The notes: generated by a model from the sequence alone, not told the origin. A stretch of DNA of 19,416 bases from a bacterium (GCA_041497675.1 JBGQGY010000072.1:1-19416), one strand, 5' to 3'; positions 1 through 16,567 are shown, counted from the first letter of the stretch. Numbers and translations are program-made.

Positions 1-72
1 CCATCGTCTAGGGGACCAGGACGCGGCCCTCTCAAGGCCGAAACGGGGGTTCGAATCCCCCTGGGGCCACCA
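1..72 (+). tRNA. tRNA-Glu (anticodon CTC), first ~4 nt lie outside the window
   Basis: Anticodon stem CGGCC(24-28)/GGCCG(36-40) with loop CTCTCAA (CTC at 31-33); T arm GGGGG-TTCGAAT-CCCCC (45-61); acceptor 3' strand TGGGGCC, discriminator A and encoded CCA ending at 72. Confidence 0.96.
54..72 (+). repeat. attL-like core (tRNA 3' end), direct repeat copy 1
   Basis: AATCCCCCTGGGGCCACCA is identical at 54-72 and 5654-5672 (21/22 match when extended to 51/5651). Confidence 0.92.
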
Positions 73-184
73 TCCCTTCGCGTGTTTCAAGCCCTGCACC
101 GGCGAGCACCCCGCCAAGTCTTAGTCGCCCGCTGAACCGATCGCCGCGCCGGCCCCCCTCGGCTACCACCCATGCCGCGTAGCA

Positions 185-365
185 CCTCGGTGTAGGTCTT
201 GTCCTTCGAGAGGGGGAGCGCGGGTCGTCGGCGAGGTCGAGACCGCGAAGGCTCCGGCGACGTCCATGTGAGGGACCCATCAAGGCCACGAACTCCCCCT
301 TGTCAACGTGCAGGGAGAGACCGCGCAGCGGCGCGACGTCGGTGTCTCCCACTCGATACGAGCTT
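185..365 (-). pseudogene. N-terminal remnant of a LolD/MacB-type ABC transporter ATP-binding protein
   Basis: Minus strand reads SYRVGDTDVAPLRGLSLHVDKGEFVALMGPS and breaks inside Walker A (no GKST); degenerate GLD..PT..LEGQDL follows in shifted frames. Confidence 0.75.
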
Positions 366-427
366 TGCGGGACAAGTGGCGCCAGCGAAACGCCTGGCGC
401 CAGCGAGTGCCATCGGACCGCCCTCGG

Positions 428-595
428 TCACACTGCTAGCATACGCCTCATTTCCTCGAACTGCTCGCGCGTGATTTCCCCGAGCGCATAGCGTCGCTTG
501 AGAATGTCTAGCAGTGATTCATTCTCCGGCGCGCTTGTCGCTGCTGTTTGAGTGTTATGCTCCGAGTGATCCATTCCATGCATTAGCATGCACAT
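428..595 (-). CDS. Small SHOCT-domain protein with a Met/His/Cys-rich N-terminus
   Basis: GGAGGAGG RBS just upstream of ATG 595; MCMLMHGMDHSEH...LLDILKRRYALGEITREQFEEMRRML (SHOCT signature). Confidence 0.85.
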   Translation of the reverse strand: MCMLMHGMDHSEHNTQTAATSAPENESLLDILKRRYALGEITREQFEEMRRMLAV

Positions 596-658
596 TTCGT
601 TCCTCCTCCGTTTGCACATCCAGTTCTTCTATTCCAACAAGATCGCCGCCCGAGCCAC

Positions 659-1132
659 TTACGGTAGCGTCTTCAAGTAGGCAAGTAGGTCATTCCACTC
701 GGGGTCGGTCGGCTGCCAGCGCGGCATTGGCCAGTCGAGTGGCTTGCCTTCCGCATCAATCCCCTGGGTGACTGCGCGCCGGATCAGGTCATCCGTGTAG
801 ATTGGGCCGCGTGTGCCATCTGGCTCTAACATGCCAGCCGAGTCAATGAGATTGCGGTAGGTGATGTTGGGGCCAACGAACATCGGCGTGCGCCAACCAT
901 GGCCGTCCAGCCCATGACAGCTGGCACAGCTTGCTCGCATCATCATGCCTCCAGAATAGGGAATCGGCCGCCCATCTGGATCGGCTCCTGTTCTGAAAAT
1001 CCATTCTCCTCGCGCGGCTGGAGTGCCGCTCGAAAGACCCAGGGTATTACCCCGGGAGCCGAGCAGCAGCAGTCCCACGATTCCGATGGCGAGGAGTGCT
1101 ATCCCGATGAACGATAGTTCCTTCGCTCGCAT
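659..1132 (-). CDS. Membrane-anchored monoheme c-type cytochrome
   Basis: N-terminal hydrophobic helix (LSFIGIALLAIGIVGLLLLG), CASCH heme motif, distal MPRW methionine and LLAYLKTL C-terminal helix. Confidence 0.9.
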   Translation of the reverse strand: MRAKELSFIGIALLAIGIVGLLLLGSRGNTLGLSSGTPAARGEWIFRTGADPDGRPIPYSGGMMMRASCASCHGLDGHGWRTPMFVGPNITYRNLIDSAGMLEPDGTRGPIYTDDLIRRAVTQGIDAEGKPLDWPMPRWQPTDPEWNDLLAYLKTLP

Positions 1133-1286
1133 AGTTCCTGCTCAAGATCCCGCCGGATCCTCAAGGTCTTTGCGCAGCTGCGATGAATCCGCAGCGAACG
1201 GTTTGCGAAGAAAGTGTGAGTTCTCACTTCCATGGATACCCCCCGGGAGTGCGATGCACTATCGGGTGAGCGACGGATTTTGCGAG

Positions 1287-1315
1287 TTGACAGTGCCTGC
1301 AAGCGGAATTACCAT
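1287..1315 (+). promoter_or_regulatory. sigma70-type promoter of the arsR-sqr-dsrEFH operon
   Basis: TTGACA (1287-1292), 17-nt spacer, TACCAT (1310-1315), ~45 nt upstream of the ArsR start. Confidence 0.75.
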
Positions 1316-1330
1316 GAGTGTAGTTTATAG

Positions 1331-1349
1331 AATTCATTACTATGAAATT
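1331..1349. promoter_or_regulatory. Putative ArsR-family operator
   Basis: AT-rich inverted repeat TTCAT-TACT-ATGAA (1333-1346), also readable as ATTC-N8-GAAA, just downstream of the predicted transcription start. Confidence 0.55.
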
Positions 1350-1360
1350 GAGATTTTCCT

Positions 1361-1702
1361 ATGCGACGAGGATCGCCGGATCGCTCAATTTTTGAGTTGC
1401 ACGCTCAGATCTGCCAGGCGCTGGCGAGCGCCAAGCGCCTGGAAATCCTTGATGCGCTCCGCGACGGGGAGCGCTCGGTGAGTGAGCTCATCGACGCGCT
1501 AGGCGTGCGCAAAGCGAACGTTTCTCAGCACCTGGCCGTGATGCGAGCCAAGGGGATTGTGGTGGCACGGCGGGAAGGCCAGACGATCTTTTACCGCCTC
1601 GCCACGCCGAAGGTCATTCAGGCGTGCGACCTGATGCGGCAGGTGTTGCTTGAGCGTCTGGAGCACAGCGGGCGGCTCGCCAGGAAGGCGGTCGGGAAAT
1701 GA
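1361..1702 (+). CDS. ArsR/SmtB-family transcriptional repressor (two Cys)
   Basis: ALASAKRLEILDAL...SVSEL...VSQHLAVMRAKGIVVARREGQTIFYRL winged HTH; stop overlaps the next start (ATGA). Confidence 0.95.
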   Translation: MRRGSPDRSIFELHAQICQALASAKRLEILDALRDGERSVSELIDALGVRKANVSQHLAVMRAKGIVVARREGQTIFYRLATPKVIQACDLMRQVLLERLEHSGRLARKAVGK

Positions 1703-2946
1703 CAAGCAAGACCGTGGTCATCCTCGGTGGTGGGGTGGGCGGTCTCGTGGCCGCCAACGAACTGCGCCGGCGGCTCCCCCAGCAGCACCGTGTGATACTC
1801 GTCGAAAAGGATCCCCGGCATGCATTCGCGCCATCGTTTCTCTGGGTGATGGTCGGTGATCGGCGGCCGGATCAGATTACACGCGACATGCGGACCCTAG
1901 TCTCGCGCGGCGTCGAGGTCACGCAGGCCCAAGTCGTCGGGATTGAGCCTGGTGGCGGGCGCGTGGAGACCACCAGGGGGCCGATCCATTTCGACTCCTT
2001 GGTGATCGCGCTCGGGGCTGAATACGCGCCCGAGATGGTGGCCGGACTAACGGAAGCAACGCACACCTTCTACACGTGGGAGGGCGCTACACGTCTCCAC
2101 CAAGCCCTGCAAGCATTTCCTGATCGCGGTGGACGCGTGGCGGTCGTCGTGAGCGCCCTGCCTTACAAGTGTCCCGGCGCTCCTCACGAAGGGGCGATGC
2201 TGCTCGCTGACTACTTCCGACGCCGCAACCTCGGGAGCCGGGTCGAGGTGCATCTCTACACCCCAGAACCCCAGCCGATGCCGGTGGCGGGCCCTGCTCT
2301 GGGCGAAGCGCTCAAAGAGATGCTTCAAATGCGGGGCGTGCTCTTCCACCCGCTGCACAAACTCGTGGCAGTGGACCCCGACGCACGCGAATTGGCGTTC
2401 GAGGGGCAGGCACCGGTGAAATTTGACCTCCTGGTCGCCATCCCGCCTCACAGAAGCCCGAGGGTCGTACGCGATGCCGGTCTGACCGGCGAGACGGGAT
2501 GGATCCCGGTGGAGCGGGCCACGCTGAGAACCCGTTACGAGAACGTCTACGCGGTGGGCGACGTGACGGCGATCTCGATCCCCGGGCGCTGGAAGCCCGA
2601 GATTCCTCTGATGCTGCCGAAGGCGGGGGTGTTCGCCCACGCCCAGGCCGAGGTGGTCGCGCGGCGGATTGCCGCTGAGATCGCCGGTGCCCCGATCACC
2701 GCTGAGTTCGGGGGGAACGGCTACTGCATGCTGGAGGCGGGAAAGGCGACGGCGGGCTTTGCCTTCGGGGATTTCTTCGCGGAGCCCAGCCCGAAGATGG
2801 AACTCCGGCGGCTGGGCCGCTCCTGGCACTGGGGAAAGGTGCTGTTCGAGCGGTGGTGGCTGACGCCACCGGGGCCGCGGCGTGAGGCGCTCCGCATGGC
2901 ACTCGGGCTTGGCGCCAGATGGTTAGGCGTTCCGGCTGTCGCGTGA
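1699..2946 (+). CDS. Sulfide:quinone oxidoreductase-like FAD-dependent oxidoreductase (SQR/FCSD family)
   Basis: GxGxxG Rossmann motif (ILGGGVGG), KCPGAPHE and GYCMLE redox cysteines, NVYAVGD FAD motif, PKAGVFA, amphipathic C-terminus WGKVLFERWWL. Confidence 0.88.
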   Translation: MTSKTVVILGGGVGGLVAANELRRRLPQQHRVILVEKDPRHAFAPSFLWVMVGDRRPDQITRDMRTLVSRGVEVTQAQVVGIEPGGGRVETTRGPIHFDSLVIALGAEYAPEMVAGLTEATHTFYTWEGATRLHQALQAFPDRGGRVAVVVSALPYKCPGAPHEGAMLLADYFRRRNLGSRVEVHLYTPEPQPMPVAGPALGEALKEMLQMRGVLFHPLHKLVAVDPDARELAFEGQAPVKFDLLVAIPPHRSPRVVRDAGLTGETGWIPVERATLRTRYENVYAVGDVTAISIPGRWKPEIPLMLPKAGVFAHAQAEVVARRIAAEIAGAPITAEFGGNGYCMLEAGKATAGFAFGDFFAEPSPKMELRRLGRSWHWGKVLFERWWLTPPGPRREALRMALGLGARWLGVPAVA

Positions 2947-2956
2947 GACGAATGCA

Positions 2957-3325
2957 GTGATCCTCAACGGCGTTTTTAGCATCTTACCCGTGCCGGCCGC
3001 CTCAGGACGATCTAACGCGGTAGAGGTCTTCGACCGCGCGGCCGAGCGCTATAACGCGTGGTTCGACTCTCGGCAGGAACGGATGCTCTTTCGAGCCGCG
3101 GTCCAGGCGATCCACCAGATTGTCCGCCACGTGCTGAAGAGTCCAGCGGGCCCAGCCCCAGAGGTTGGAGTCGGTACAGGTCGATTTGCTCAGGTTCTCG
3201 GAGTTCCCTATGGCGTGGATCCGGCTTTAGGGGCACTACGACTCGCCCGGCGCCGTGGCATCCGCGTCGTCCAGGCCCGTGGAGAAGCTCTACCGTTTGT
3301 CTGTCTGCTCGCGAGGAGGTCATAG
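2957..3325 (+). pseudogene. Truncated class I SAM-dependent methyltransferase (N-terminal half only)
   Basis: VFDRAAERYNAWFD, EVGVGTGRFA motif I, GVDPA..ARRRGIRVVQARGEALPF; similarity ends there and TAG follows. Start uncertain. Confidence 0.75.
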
Positions 3326-3326
3326 C

Positions 3327-3704
3327 TTGGAGCCGGAGGGCCCTGCATCACACAAGACGCTGACCATATTTCTGGCGGCAACTCCCTACGCTGGCGAGCA
3401 GGCCTCCACGGCGATCCGTCTGGCGAGGGCGGCGATCAATGCTGGTCATCGAGTGAGCATTTTTGCGTCCGCCGATGGCGTCTATGGGTTCACCGTGGGA
3501 CATCGGGCCAAAGGCCTACCTAACGCTGAGACCGGCTTCGGCGACCTCATCGCACGGGGAGCACACGTCGAGCTCTGCGGGAGTTGCCTGGCCACTCGAG
3601 GCCTGAAGCGGGAGAGCCTGCTACCAGGCGCTGATCCATCGTCGCTCGAAAAGCTGTTCCGCTTGATCCGAGAGAGCGATGTACTCCTCACCCTGGGGGA
3701 GTGA
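3327..3704 (+). CDS. dsrE: DsrE/TusD-like sulfurtransferase subunit
   Basis: GGAGG RBS before TTG 3327; TPY..A.RLA.AA...GHRVSIF..ADGVY and ELCGSCLATRG (active-site Cys region). Confidence 0.85.
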   Translation: MEPEGPASHKTLTIFLAATPYAGEQASTAIRLARAAINAGHRVSIFASADGVYGFTVGHRAKGLPNAETGFGDLIARGAHVELCGSCLATRGLKRESLLPGADPSSLEKLFRLIRESDVLLTLGE

Positions 3705-3705
3705 C

Positions 3706-4077
3706 ATGGACTCGTTCTGCATCCTGTTCCGGAAGGCACCGTACGGCACGATCGTGGCGGCGGAGGGACTCCGGCACCTCATCGCAGCTGCGGGGATGAT
3801 GGCAGCCCGCGCCATATTGCTCGACGACGGTGTCTACCTGGCGAAGCGCGGGCAAGAGCCGGGCGACAGCGGATGGATCAATCTGTCTCAGACGCTGGAG
3901 AAGGCTCTGGCCGACTGCCGGGCCGACCCATCCTGCCAGTTGCACGTGTACGTGCACGAAGGTTCGCTCAAAGAGCGGAACCTCGATCCCGCTGTTCTCG
4001 TGTCGGGCGTGGAACTCGCTGACGACGACCAAGTGGCTACGGTGATCGCCGAAGCCCGTCGCATGCTTATATTCTGA
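3706..4077 (+). CDS. dsrF: DsrF/TusC-like subunit
   Basis: ATG 2 nt after the dsrE stop; FRKAPYGT..AAEGLR, LLDDGVYL, YVHEGSLKERNL, ends in LIF. Confidence 0.85.
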   Translation: MDSFCILFRKAPYGTIVAAEGLRHLIAAAGMMAARAILLDDGVYLAKRGQEPGDSGWINLSQTLEKALADCRADPSCQLHVYVHEGSLKERNLDPAVLVSGVELADDDQVATVIAEARRMLIF

Positions 4078-4087
4078 GGGTGCGCTG

Positions 4088-4423
4088 ATGTCGAAGGTGC
4101 TTCTCATGATCGCCAGTTCTCCTCGCAGCATGGAAGCGCAACGCGCCTTTCATCTCGCGCGCACGTTGCACACGCAACGCCGGACCGTCTCTGTCGTCCT
4201 TCTGCAGGATGCCGTCCTGGCTGCCGTCGGGAACGGGCCTGCTCAGGACCCCGACGGTCTCGCCATGCTAGTGCCACGAGGAGTATCCGTCTACGTCTGC
4301 GAGCACGACCTGACACTGCGCGGGTTCGCGCCCGACATGATCGGCGGGGCCCAATCCGTGAACGATCAGCGCATCGTCGATCTGATGGTTGCCGACGACA
4401 CCCGCACCTTCGGGTGCTTCTAG
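4088..4423 (+). CDS. dsrH: DsrH/TusB-like subunit
   Basis: VVLLQDAVLAA, VYVCEHDLTLRGF, IVDLMV; third gene in canonical E-F-H order. Confidence 0.82.
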   Translation: MSKVLLMIASSPRSMEAQRAFHLARTLHTQRRTVSVVLLQDAVLAAVGNGPAQDPDGLAMLVPRGVSVYVCEHDLTLRGFAPDMIGGAQSVNDQRIVDLMVADDTRTFGCF

Positions 4424-4530
4424 GCGATGTGTGGTGCGGGAGTGAGTCATCCAATAGATCGACGGGAAATGTGAATACTCGGTAAGGGGCGGCACAGCCG
4501 TTCTCCCTCTCAAAGACGAGGTGAAGGATC

Positions 4531-4878
4531 ATGAGTGGACGTGATATTGGGATCATCGCGCTGGTGATCATTGGAGTGCTCCTCCTGGTCCCGGTACTCG
4601 GCGGAAGCATGATGGGTGGTTGGGGAATGGGCCCGGGAATGATGGGCGGCCAGTGGTACGGGGGACGTGGGGGCTGGGGCATGCCGCTCGTAGGTGGGCT
4701 GTTCTGGCTGGCCATTCTGGCCGGCATCGTTCTGCTGATCACTTCGGCCGCTCGCCATCAAGGGCCGTCGCGCCCCGCCGGCGCTGAGGAGCCGCCGCTA
4801 GACATTCTGAAGCGCCGCTTGGCGAAGGGTGAGATCACACGCGAAGAGTATGAATCGCTCAAGAAGGAACTCTCATGA
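4531..4878 (+). CDS. Two-TM membrane protein with Gly/Met-rich loop and C-terminal SHOCT domain
   Basis: GAGG/AAGGA RBS; TM1, MMGGWGMGPGMMGG loop, TM2, PLDILKRRLAKGEITREEYESLKKEL. Confidence 0.9.
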   Translation: MSGRDIGIIALVIIGVLLLVPVLGGSMMGGWGMGPGMMGGQWYGGRGGWGMPLVGGLFWLAILAGIVLLITSAARHQGPSRPAGAEEPPLDILKRRLAKGEITREEYESLKKELS

Positions 4879-5062
4879 GGCGGTGAGGACGCTAAGCCCT
4901 CTTGGCTCGGCGGAACGAATGCTTGCGGCGGCAGCGATGAGTCTGCCGGGCGTGAGTACGCTGCCAGGGTTCGGAGAACTTCACGCGTGCTGAAGCGCAG
5001 TTCCTCAGTACCCACGAGGGCGGCATCACCGGCGCTCGTACAGCCGAGCTACAGCTGGTACC

Positions 5063-5225
5063 TTATCCGCCGGCGAGGAGTCGGTCCATCCTCGCCGCGG
5101 CCGCCTTCTGGCATCGAAGGCACCGTGTGCGAATAGGTGTCCAGCGTCATACTGATCGCCGAGTGCCCAGGTGTCTCCTGCCCGACCTTGGGTAGGGCCT
5201 GCTCTGCAGGTGCAGCGTGGCGTCG
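5063..5225 (-). pseudogene. C-terminal remnant of a tyrosine recombinase/integrase
   Basis: Frameshifted pieces ATLHLQ / PKVGQETPGHSAISMTLDTYSHTVPSM / QKAAAARMDRLLAGG-TAA(5065-5063) match the box II LGH...T..Y.H motif carrying the catalytic Tyr. Confidence 0.88.
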
Positions 5226-5274
5226 GTTGGCGGGTTCGAGACCCTGAAGGCCGCCCCTGCGGCGACAATGAACT

Positions 5275-5400
5275 AGTCCAACCGCAGACGCTCTATTGCC
5301 CCGGCCCGCCGGTGCGCATGCGGCAGGTCGACCTAGGCGGCTAGCGCGACGCTGGCGAAGGTGACTTCGAGCGAACGCGCGGCGCCGTCGAATCTCCCTG
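5275..5400 (+). repeat. ~127-bp imperfect direct repeat, copy 1 (att-arm-like, ends in degenerate core TCGAATCTCCCTG)
   Basis: AGTCCAACCGCAG...CAGGTCGACCTAGGCGGCTA...GGCGAAGGTGACTTCGAGC...GCCGTC aligns with 5535-5663 (about 13 substitutions and 3 gap positions by manual alignment). Confidence 0.9.
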
Positions 5401-5534
5401 ACGGAGCAGACCGCCGGCACCGGCTATGCCGGGCAGTGGGAAAGGACGGGAACGCGTACCGCGATCTCCTCACGAGCAATGAAAACTACAGGGTTGAGCA
5501 AGCCCCCGCTACCGAAGATCTTTCGGGCGGCCTC

Positions 5535-5663
5535 AGTCCAACCGCAGCCGCTCTATCGCGCTGGCCCGCTAGGTGCGCCTGCGCTACAGGTCGACCTAGG
5601 CGGCTAACGCGACGCCGGCGAAGGTGACTTCGAGCAAACGCGCGGTGCCGTCAAATCCCCCTG
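5535..5663 (+). repeat. ~127-bp imperfect direct repeat, copy 2 (runs into attR core)
   Basis: Aligns with 5275-5400 and continues directly into the tRNA 3'-end duplicate. Confidence 0.9.
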
Positions 5664-5672
5664 GGGCCACCA
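5654..5672 (+). repeat. attR-like core (duplicate of tRNA-Glu 3' end)
   Basis: Identical to 54-72, including the terminal CCA. Confidence 0.92.
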
Positions 5673-5714: not shown

Positions 5715-6464
5715 ATGAATAGTGACGGCGTTCTCCTGCCCGTCTTGATCCTGGCGATGGCACTGCTCTACTCGTCCGTGGGGCACGCCGGCGCCTCGGG
5801 CTACTTGGCGGCAATGGCGTTGTTCGGGGTTTCGCCCACGATCATGAAACCCTCCGCGCTGGTGCTCAATATTCTTGTGGCCAGCATCGCGGTAGTGCAG
5901 TTCGCGCGGGCGGGCCGGGTCTCATGGTCGGCACTCTGGCCATTCACGGTCGGCTCGATCCCGCTCGCGTTTCTCGGCGGGGCGCTGCACCTTCCGGGCA
6001 CGATCTACAAACCGCTGGTGGGGGCAGTGCTCCTGTTTGCCGCTGGCCGCCTGCTCTGGTCCACGTTCCAGGAGACGGCGAGCCAGACGCGTGCTATCCG
6101 TAACGTTCCACCCGTGCCAGCCGTCGTCGCAGGGGCGGTCATTGGCCTTCTCGCGGGACTCACCGGCACCGGTGGCGGCATCTTTCTCAGCCCGCTTCTG
6201 CTCCTTACGGGGTGGGCTGAGATCCGCGGGACCGCGGGGGTCTCGGCGGCGTTCATTTTGGTGAACTCTGTCGCCGGATTGGCAGGCAACCTCACGAGTG
6301 TGCGGCAGGTGCCGGCGGCGGCACTCGTGTGGGCGGCAGCGGCTGCGATGGGTGGCCTCGTCGGTGCCCGCCTGGGAAGCCGCCGACTGGCGAGCATGAC
6401 GCTCCGGCGTCTTCTCGCGCTGGTGCTGGTGATCGCCGGAACCAAACTCCTCCTCGGCATCTAG
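5715..6464 (+). CDS. TauE/SafE (TSUP) family sulfite/sulfur-compound exporter
   Basis: About 8 hydrophobic helices; YSSVGHAGASGYLA and GLLAGLTGTGGGIFLSPLL repeats typical of the family. Confidence 0.92.
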   Translation: MNSDGVLLPVLILAMALLYSSVGHAGASGYLAAMALFGVSPTIMKPSALVLNILVASIAVVQFARAGRVSWSALWPFTVGSIPLAFLGGALHLPGTIYKPLVGAVLLFAAGRLLWSTFQETASQTRAIRNVPPVPAVVAGAVIGLLAGLTGTGGGIFLSPLLLLTGWAEIRGTAGVSAAFILVNSVAGLAGNLTSVRQVPAAALVWAAAAAMGGLVGARLGSRRLASMTLRRLLALVLVIAGTKLLLGI

Positions 6465-6474
6465 TCATAATCGC

Positions 6475-6796
6475 TCATGACGGGGTTCGCCGCGAGGCCC
6501 GCGCGGCCGCGGCAATCTGGGCATGGAGCCGCTCGACGGCCTCGGGATCCGCGTGTCGCGCGAAGAGTTCGATGGCCAGGCCCTCCAGCGAGGCCCGCAC
6601 CTCATAGAGCGCCTTCGAGTTCCAATTTGCGGAGCGCTTCGCGGATCGGCGTCCGGCTCACACCCATCTGCTGCGCGAGTTGACGCTCGGGGATCCGCTG
6701 ACCGGGCCGGAAGTGGCCGGAGAGAATCGCGTCGCGCAGCTTGCGCAGCGCCAGGTCGCGGGTGGGGACGTTTTCGGTAATCAGCAGCCTCGTCAT
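6475..6796 (-). pseudogene. GntR-family (FadR/FCD type) regulator, frameshifted by an internal deletion and C-terminally truncated
   Basis: HTH LRDAILSGHFRPGQRIPERQLAQQMGVSRTPIREALRKLELEG stops at 6602; another frame continues KALYEVRASLEGLAIELFARHADPEAVERL (FCD start) and stops at 6475. The wing/linker segment is missing. Confidence 0.85.
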
Positions 6797-16332: not shown

Positions 16333-16567
16333 TCAGGACTGCTGCAGAGTGCTCTTTAGGTCGATGTATTGTTCCTTCGTGATCTCGCCCTTCGCCAGCC
16401 GCTGCTTCAGCACTGCCAGGGGGTCATCGGCGGGATGCCGTCTGGAGAGCAGCGCGAATCCACGGACCCATCATGCCGGGGCCCATGAAGAACATGCCGA
16501 GCGCGGGCAGCAGCACGAGTGCGCCGAGAATCACAAGCAATACGATGCTCAGGTCTCTGGAACTCAT
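16333..16567 (-). pseudogene. Frameshifted SHOCT membrane protein, homolog of 4531-4878
   Basis: Good RBS; MSSRDLSIVLLVILGALVLLPALGMFFMGPGMMGPW runs out of frame (TGA 16426-16424); a second frame gives GFALLSRRHPADDPLAVLKQRLAKGEITKEQYIDLKSTLQQS-TGA. Most of TM2 is missing. Confidence 0.85.

Follow-up and report, generated by a model that had tools for sequence, protein, structure and literature searches.

A 19,416-nucleotide stretch of bacterial DNA (GCA_041497675.1 JBGQGY010000072.1:1-19416; the window), which is contig C72 of a 3.97-Mb genome that is 98.6% complete, carries an operon in which an arsR repressor gene and a sulfide:quinone oxidoreductase (SQR) gene are followed by a broken methyltransferase gene and then by dsrE-, dsrF-, and dsrH-like genes. 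We conclude that this operon is real, recurring, and mobile, and that the E/F/H trio fills the slot held beside most related SQRs by a single CG[ST]C DsrE-like gene. Because some DsrE-like gene stands at 55 of 80 related sqr loci and tusA at none, the trio looks like a known arrangement, sqr beside a single (DsrE4-like) DsrE gene, in heteromeric form. We lean slightly toward reading the operon as a cassette that detoxifies sulfide and sulfane sulfur: the cysteine of DsrE would capture SQR-made polysulfide, with no need of TusA or DsrC. The features of the operon are as follows.

1287..1315, + strand: candidate sigma-70 promoter, TTGACA-17-TACCAT, 10/12 consensus
1332..1347, unstranded: candidate operator for ArsR, ATTC-N8-GAAA, downstream of the promoter and ahead of the start codon
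1361..1702, + strand: ArsR/SmtB repressor (NF033788, 87.2 bits, cut-off 55) with C18 in helix 1 and C89 in helix 5
1699..2946, + strand: SQR, type III-like; C158 and C343 are its only cysteines; two C-terminal helices
2957..3325, + strand: broken class I S-adenosylmethionine-dependent methyltransferase, 5′ half only, 62% identical to residues 14-100 of the gene at related locus L109
3327..3704, + strand: DsrE-like subunit with CGSC motif (PF02635, 63 bits); TTG start behind AGGAGG
3706..4077, + strand: DsrF/TusC-like subunit (TIGR03010, 43, under the cut-off of 94.15); no conserved cysteine
4088..4423, + strand: DsrH/TusB-like subunit (PF04077, 30.1 bits, over the cut-off of 24.4); no invariant cysteine

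The flavoprotein, the trio, and their missing partners

An earlier note on this DNA, made from the sequence alone, had called the second gene product an SQR-like flavoprotein with both redox cysteines, and closer comparison agrees: identification as an SQR is well supported and assignment to type III likely, given the cysteines, fold ranking, family model, and cysteine spacing. Specifically, i) C158 and C343 align to C156 and C347 of the Aquifex enzyme and are invariant in 30 aligned sequences, while Y125 sits opposite Aquifex C124, the type III pattern being two cysteines with no third cysteine that links flavin adenine dinucleotide (FAD); ii) a structure model (predicted local distance difference test score, pLDDT, 89) has helices at residues 374-387 and 393-409 that align to the Aquifex C-terminal helix, and in Foldseek all listed rows through rank 19 are SQRs (template modeling score 0.79-0.82), followed by NDH-2 and FCSD at 0.71-0.76; iii) the best PDB sequence match is also an SQR; and iv) the best NCBIfam model, NF049943, is that of the type III selenoprotein subtype, at 223 bits and under its cut-off of 525. 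Fold, redox cysteine pair, and C-terminal helices are thus those of the SQR family; membrane binding is predicted, and no leader precedes the FAD-binding motif. Near relatives of the SQR are labeled Armatimonadetes, and the source phylum comprises 94 genomes of a single order, which together would fit CSP1-3/Sysuimicrobiota (PMC11604079). A plasmid search with the protein returned distant relatives only (best listed identity 37.5%).

The trio fits the general description of DsrEFH, three syntenic genes of E, F, and H fold with a cysteine at the active position of E, and its canonical order had been recognized in the earlier note. DsrE scores 22.8 with TIGR03012 (cut-off 89.25); its best PDB match is YchN (E 0.0018), with TusD at E 0.04, and its two cysteines (codons 3576-3578 and 3585-3587) are both kept in at least 90% of 42 homologs. 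DsrF is nearest to Allochromatium vinosum DsrF (E 8.5e-9), and DsrH, at 36.8 with TIGR03011 (cut-off 49.2), is a weak DsrH match. A predicted complex of SQR with E, F, and H scored 0.00 against a mark of 0.32, with controls not folded, and is counted neither way.

Family searches of the genome, including PF01206 and PF04358 and with controls detected, found no TusA, DsrC/TusE, DsrA, or YeeE, which extends to the whole genome the earlier observation that dsrC, tusA, and dsrA are missing from the window; nor was TusA found in two genomes of the same genus. PF02635 has only three matches in the genome, all within the window. The claim that persulfide dioxygenase (PDO) and rhodanese are lacking holds for the window and not beyond it, as the genome has eight rhodanese matches and encodes, on contig C232, a fusion of rhodanese and a metallo-beta-lactamase domain that has a PDO-like motif, for which no named model passed. 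With the usual partners of such a carrier not found, the trio probably takes up the reactive sulfur that the SQR makes by a route not yet described.

The earlier note held that grouping of the trio with TusDCB of tRNA thiolation, its partners being encoded elsewhere, would count against such a role. Quick trees of 113 and 37 rows, which included six TusD references but neither reverse-Dsr nor type II sequences, separate the trio E genes and TusD into two clades, each with 99% support in the SH-like approximate likelihood ratio test (SH-aLRT), and place F with TusC and H with TusB; a sister relation between trio E and TusD is not rejected with these six references (approximately unbiased test, p-AU 0.415). 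Reverse-Dsr DsrE references over cut-off numbered 0/14, 0/30, and 0/121 in the genomes searched. The trio could therefore be imagined as a displaced TusDCB-like relay, serving tRNA thiolation or cofactor synthesis and merely travelling with sqr; the placement of F and H, the unrejected E-TusD clade, and the presence of MnmA in the genome all fit. We nevertheless think this extremely unlikely, as the three genes fall under their TIGR cut-offs, neither TusA nor TusE was found, and no more than 3 of the source phylum's 94 genomes have a close DsrE homolog, unlike a housekeeping function. On family cut-offs and partners, the refutation posed in the earlier note did not come about.

Recurrence of the pairing of sqr with DsrE-like genes

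Species genomes yielded 181 SQR relatives, and we surveyed the flanks of the best 80. A DsrE-fold gene is present at 55 loci, a full trio at 4 and a contig-cut trio at 1, tusA at none, a PDO-like gene at 3, rhodanese at 25, and a methyltransferase at 16; among the 30 loci with complete flanks, DsrE is present at 21 and PDO at none. The single DsrE genes beside sqr share the CG[ST]C motif, and on the SQR tree the trio label requires 4 changes and falls among SQRs with a single DsrE. In metagenomes, the window DsrE as query retrieved ten loci, of which 9 have sqr upstream, 10 have dsrF after dsrE, and 9 have dsrH, the tenth locus being only 1.25 kb long. The order of sqr and trio thus recurs, as the earlier note had asked of it, and a second gene order of sqr and trio exists in two Chloroflexota genomes. 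Farther afield, a close DsrE was found in 3 of 401 genomes sampled from the phylum of genome G096, two of them showing no sqr in the DNA available, both near contig ends, and a search of 301 genomes of another phylum yielded trios of other types and one case of sqr next to a single DsrE.

In 5 of 50 single-DsrE sqr loci, the first DsrE cysteine position is replaced by an in-frame TGA, and 8 of 149 distant DsrE relatives stop immediately ahead of the first cysteine, Nitrospirae proteins belonging to one cluster of these; DNA for such a truncated DsrE was not found in viral contigs. The TGA codons are probably selenocysteine, and TGA or a protein end at this position marks the first cysteine as the reactive residue. 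The five genes lie at L026:5068-5418, L045:7339-7689, L049:5578-5904, L059:1528-1878, and L064:7246-7596, and one of the five carries an archaeal label.

The same genome holds a second arsR-sqr copy on contig C99 (L016:9357-11147), with an SQR 74% identical and the same operator. Its dsrE is cut to 36 codons where a tRNA-Val-like sequence lies on the opposite strand, and two FtsX-type permeases, an ATPase, a lipoprotein, an integrase-tail remnant, and tRNA-Arg follow.

Related clusters of other composition were also seen. A recurring cluster at loci L166 (4534-11728), L167 (3094-11743), L183, L186, and L189 holds, under an Rrf2-like regulator, two E/F/H-like trios, two TusA genes, and ThiS/MoaD-like, JAB or cysteine-synthase-like, HdrC/D-like, and GcvH-like genes (all labels by eye). 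At L168 (3739-7080), a run of arsR, second SQR-like, DUF1641-like, DsrC/TusE-like, and DsrE2-like genes was seen, its ArsR having a cysteine in the matching helix-1 motif; a search of that genome found no dsrA. At L144 (3790-6928 and 8628-9135), an ArsR-rhodanese fusion, a rhodanese-PDO-like gene, and an MFS gene lie upstream of sqr and the trio, and the cluster adjoins tRNA-Val and an integrase-arm-like remnant, so that this setting, too, resembles an island.

Operon layout, promoter, and repressor

The arsR gene overlaps the sqr start (ATGA), and dsrE, dsrF, and dsrH are closely packed; the description of the whole operon as tightly coupled had overlooked the 380 nucleotides between the sqr stop and the dsrE start, and the methyltransferase stub within them. 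Locus L109 has an intact 222-residue methyltransferase in the matching position, the two closest loci (L104 and L105) have lost it entirely, and the stub also occurs in public contigs. Isoprenylcysteine-methyltransferase-like membrane genes flank the operon at L107:1628-2386, L109:3746-4489, and L105:5244-5621. The recurring methyltransferase raises the question of whether the substrate might be another chalcogen or thiol (selenide, methanethiol, or an organic thiol) with methylation as part of the route. Such a gene stands at 16 of the 80 sqr loci and at 5 trio loci, and the nearest named SQR model is that of a selenoprotein subtype; even so, another substrate appears very unlikely to us, since the methyltransferase is broken here and absent from the closest relatives while the other genes are intact, and 0 of 4 scanned methyltransferases reach the cut-off of a named family.

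The earlier note's single strong promoter is better described as a candidate: sites of that score number 2 versus 1.0 ± 1.0 in shuffles, which by itself is not above chance, and its support is that TTGACA is kept in 8 of 10 close upstream regions (window included). Between promoter and start codon lies an element overlooked earlier, the candidate operator at 1332-1347, which matches the published SqrR operator core (ATTC-N8-GAAT) at 7 of 8 positions and in four relatives at 8 of 8. All 10 close upstream regions, which are kin, match this core at 7/8 or better, versus a mean of 0.5 and a maximum of 3 in shuffles; 19 distant upstream regions show no excess of the core (3 versus 1.5 expected). 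Two rows lacking a true upstream region were dropped from the comparison. As to RNA, only short pieces over sqr appear in the one run listed, which gives no evidence of transcription. Near-identical intact copies of the operon are present in many sediment data sets.

The two cysteines ascribed to ArsR are indeed present, as a pair that differs from that of SqrR and BigR. Among 33 ArsR matches at 45% identity or more, which span bacteria and archaea and include some duplicates, 26 keep both C18 and C89, and 6 keep C18 only. The BigR model scores 59.2, under its cut-off of 155; the helix-2 cysteine of SqrR aligns to D31, the helix-5 position (L97) is extrapolated beyond the end of the alignment, and the listed homologs have no cysteine at either position. 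We consider this conserved C18/C89 repressor, with its operator of known type, a candidate for a new class of sulfur sensor.

A proposed route for the sulfur, and its alternatives

In the detoxification scheme that we prefer, i) ArsR would keep the operon repressed by binding the conserved ATTC-N8-GAAA operator in the leader; ii) sulfide-derived sulfur might modify the conserved C18 and C89 and free ArsR; iii) SQR, presumably on the inner membrane face, would pass electrons to quinone and give out polysulfide; iv) polysulfide would persulfidate the first cysteine in the CGSC of DsrE, F and H forming a cysteine-free scaffold, by a chemistry extrapolated from DsrEFH types I and II; and v) the sulfur may then move on to rhodanese or PDO-like enzymes that are encoded elsewhere, or leave by way of the second cysteine, which is the weakest step. 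Every activity in this scheme is a prediction from what the DNA itself holds, namely the genes, their order and recurrence, the residues, the operator match, and the missing partners.

Two other fates for the sulfur deserve comparison. In the strong form of the earlier note's direct-acceptor idea, which is drawn from gene context, the trio might dock on SQR so that the DsrE cysteine takes sulfur directly from the enzyme persulfide, as glutathione or rhodanese does with type II SQRs; DsrE lies adjacent to sqr without tusA at 55 of 80 loci, and SQR residues 290-306 form a conserved extra loop that could be the docking site. We regard direct channeling as unlikely, given that the partner is freely swapped among single DsrE, trio, and rhodanese-PDO, so that a diffusible product fits better than a fitted interface, and that no SQR-DsrE fusion was found among 834 longer candidates, which is weak evidence; the two long fusions among the best 150 are one VTT-rhodanese-DsrE protein and one with a DsrE match only. 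Alternatively, CxxC or UxxC DsrE could be a thioredoxin-recycled thiol-disulfide redox catalyst that reduces polysulfide or oxidized thiols and buffers the SQR product. The CxxC is shared with YchN versus the single cysteine of Escherichia coli TusD, the second cysteine is conserved, TGA replaces the first in 5 of 50 single-DsrE loci, and UxxC DsrE-like selenoproteins are catalogued, in the source available, as uncharacterized; yet proven sulfur carriers have a matching E/F/H layout, with the first cysteine at a matching position, and no thioredoxin gene was seen in the gene-called trio loci, making a redox catalyst quite unlikely.

Returning to the detoxification cassette, a number of observations weigh against it: i) a Chloroflexota trio (L141) has no sqr in the 9.5 kb available, and another (L140) has none upstream and is cut by a contig end; ii) SQRs of the same clade occur without DsrE (L003 and L027), or with a rhodanese-PDO-like gene instead (L028), a pattern implying that the trio is dispensable; iii) the counts overstate independence, as all loci are related and several nearly duplicate one another (L110 repeats L025); iv) unlinked TusA is present in 4 of 5 other trio-bearing genomes and a DsrC-like gene in 2 of 5; v) ArsR lacks the helix-2/helix-5 cysteine pair of every characterized persulfide sensor; vi) the copy on C99 retains only the 36-codon dsrE stump, and the methyltransferase of the window is broken too; and vii) in the available text of PMC13293266, TusA is the only tested protein that specifically loads DsrE type II in cable bacteria, while loading by polysulfide may lack specificity. 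Of the other trio-bearing genomes, dsrA was found in 1 of the 4 searched.

A broader formulation, which we offer as tentative and rather doubtful, is that the trio represents a Dsr-independent class of DsrEFH that would serve, TusA-free, as the dedicated acceptor of type III SQRs, under control of a putative helix-1/helix-5 ArsR sensor, in an interphylum module that uses cysteine here and selenocysteine in Nitrospirota.

The genomic island and neighboring genes

The operon lies on a genomic island of about 5.6 kb (73-5650) inserted at tRNA-Glu(CTC), so that the earlier assertion of an island-borne operon is borne out by a tRNA border, a 21/22-nucleotide repeat, an integrase remnant, and a shift in GC content (63.3% in the island versus 65.9% in the genome). 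These are the hallmarks of a tRNA-integrated island, with the integrase present as a remnant only. Further features of the island are as follows.

1..72, + strand: tRNA-Glu(CTC), 5′ end lost at the contig edge; left island border
428..619, - strand: small SHOCT-domain protein (PF09851, E 1.2e-6), island cargo
659..1132, - strand: membrane-anchored monoheme cytochrome c-like protein with CxxCH (PF13442, E 7.4e-6), island cargo, divergent from arsR
4531..4878, + strand: Gly/Met-rich membrane protein with SHOCT domain (PF09851, E 4e-9), a recurrent neighbor
5106..5210, - strand: integrase-tail-like remnant (tyrosine integrase C-terminus), resembling two other places in the genome (49-55% over 33-35 residues)
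5275-5400 and 5535-5663, + strand: two direct repeats of about 130 nucleotides, 87.6% identical, likely attachment-arm scars
5651..5672, + strand: attR, copy of the tRNA 3′ end (21/22 nucleotides identical to 51-72); right island border

ARAGORN calls no gene on the window alone and a whole tRNA-Glu gene on contig C19, which overlaps the first 141 bases of the window at 100%. The remnant at 5106-5210 has no Pfam match, and by motif it resembles the C-terminal tail of a tyrosine integrase. Sequencing run X5 has a contig break and a depth step at attR, with a single contig over 165-5683 at a depth of 14.3 and both flanks at 25.9, and in run X1 one contig crosses the right border; the lower depth over the island hints at cells without it, the empty site itself being only implied. 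An empty-site check in 5 relatives found the tauE homolog of genome G001 without a tRNA in 3.7 kb, which is uninformative. Relatives carry the operon outside any recognizable island (at L109 it lies beside topA and rpsB with no tRNA). The repeats at 5275-5663 end at attR and suggest successive integrations at tRNA-Glu, and positions 109-288 resemble contig C227 of the same genome.

Could the island copy be decaying cargo with no present function? The methyltransferase, the integrase, and the second copy on C99 are all broken. We find this scarcely credible, in that arsR, sqr, E, F, H, promoter, and operator are intact, and so are the near-identical copies in sediments.

Two neighbors were considered as partners and set aside: the cytochrome c gene, which has no tblastn match at any of the 80 sqr loci, and tauE (TauE/SafE family, 5715-6464) as a cst-like partner, which lies outside attR and is likewise unmatched in 80 of 80. 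Three SHOCT genes lie in the window (428-619, 4531-4878, and 16342-16428), with similar genes near 8 of the 80 related sqr loci. A GntR-type gene of 64 codons (6602-6796, - strand), downstream of an MmgE/PrpD gene, encodes a DNA-binding domain alone and is probably truncated.

Implications

The presence of DsrEFH in a genome is taken as a marker of Dsr-based sulfur oxidation, a use that a 2026 paper extends to a second type. An sqr-linked trio where Dsr genes, TusA, and YeeE were not found adds a third setting, in which the marker can mislead. What is added here is a cysteine version found without its usual partners, a larger TusA-free sqr-DsrE family, and a candidate sensor. If the detoxification reading is true, it would name a sulfur acceptor for type III SQRs and a function for the widespread CxxC/UxxC DsrE family; and since an all-cysteine set of four proteins is easier to express than the selenocysteine versions, the question is testable.

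Comparison with known systems

No description of an sqr-linked DsrEFH-type trio was found in a search of the open-access literature, subscription papers lying mostly outside it. The earlier note's belief that the arrangement had not been characterized is thus upheld for the trio, which is less isolated than supposed, as sqr beside a single DsrE has been described in the literature. Its interpretation overall is supported in part: gene order and partners came out as it expected, while sqr-DsrE pairing and divergent trios had already been published, the genome has the rhodanese-PDO-like fusion, rhodanese and PDO-like genes lie in the trio's own cluster at L144 and L145, so that the trio does not simply replace them, and in relatives the operon has no recognizable island around it.

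The closest published counterpart is the DsrE4 group, whose prototype is Mcup_1724. As far as the available text of Liu et al. 2014 (PMC4175335) and Tanabe et al. 2024 (PMC11094781) goes, these genes lie downstream of sqr, with tusA adjacent in Metallosphaera, and are proposed to detoxify reactive sulfur. The window resembles this in having a dsrE-like gene downstream of sqr and differs in having three subunits and no tusA rather than one DsrE with tusA, a likeness drawn from description and not from the Mcup_1724 sequence.

DsrEFH type II, or YTD, is a divergent trio that standard models miss, with one active cysteine on E (PMC13293266, PMC13047784, as available). The accessible text of PMC13293266 places type II with tusA and yeeE, mostly in dsrAB genomes, with sulfur passing to DsrC and sqr unlinked; by its quoted figures about a fifth of type II genomes had neither dsrAB type. 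That text also proposes that type II acts downstream of type III SQR, assigns subtype 1 mostly to Nitrospirota, and reports that polysulfide loads DsrE type II directly in vitro. Our trio is likewise a divergent E/F/H set, and Nitrospirota hold relatives of the window DsrE; it differs in that sqr is part of the operon and TusA, YeeE, DsrC, and DsrA were not found in the genome, the likeness again being one of description and not of that paper's hidden Markov models.

With type I DsrEFH (A. vinosum, PDB 2HY5) and TusDCB (E. coli, PDB 2D1P), the window trio shares the E-F-H order, the fold family, and an E cysteine at the Cys78-equivalent position. It differs from both in scoring under the cut-offs of all three TIGR families and in the CxxC of an E nearer to YchN, and from type I in having no linkage to dsrA or dsrC; neither a TusA donor nor a DsrC/TusE acceptor was found.

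The operons of SqrR, BigR, and CstR use type II SQR. They are described, in the parts available of PMC9163753, PMC10054925, and bioRxiv 10.64898/2026.05.15.721447, as repressor-headed sqr-pdo-rhodanese detoxification operons, and Staphylococcus aureus CstA, by the account available, fuses rhodanese, TusA, and TusD domains. The window operon is also repressor-headed, with sulfur carriers and an SqrR-core operator; it differs in its type III-like SQR, in having no pdo or rhodanese, and in its repressor cysteines, found on helices 1 and 5 where those sensors have them on 2 and 5. Its flavoprotein in turn resembles type III SQR (SqrC and the Caldivirga enzyme, as described in the available text of PMC9666304 and PMC13047784), sharing the C-terminal helices and a cysteine pair at C158/C343 that compares closely with the 159/339 given for cable bacteria (PMC13047784).

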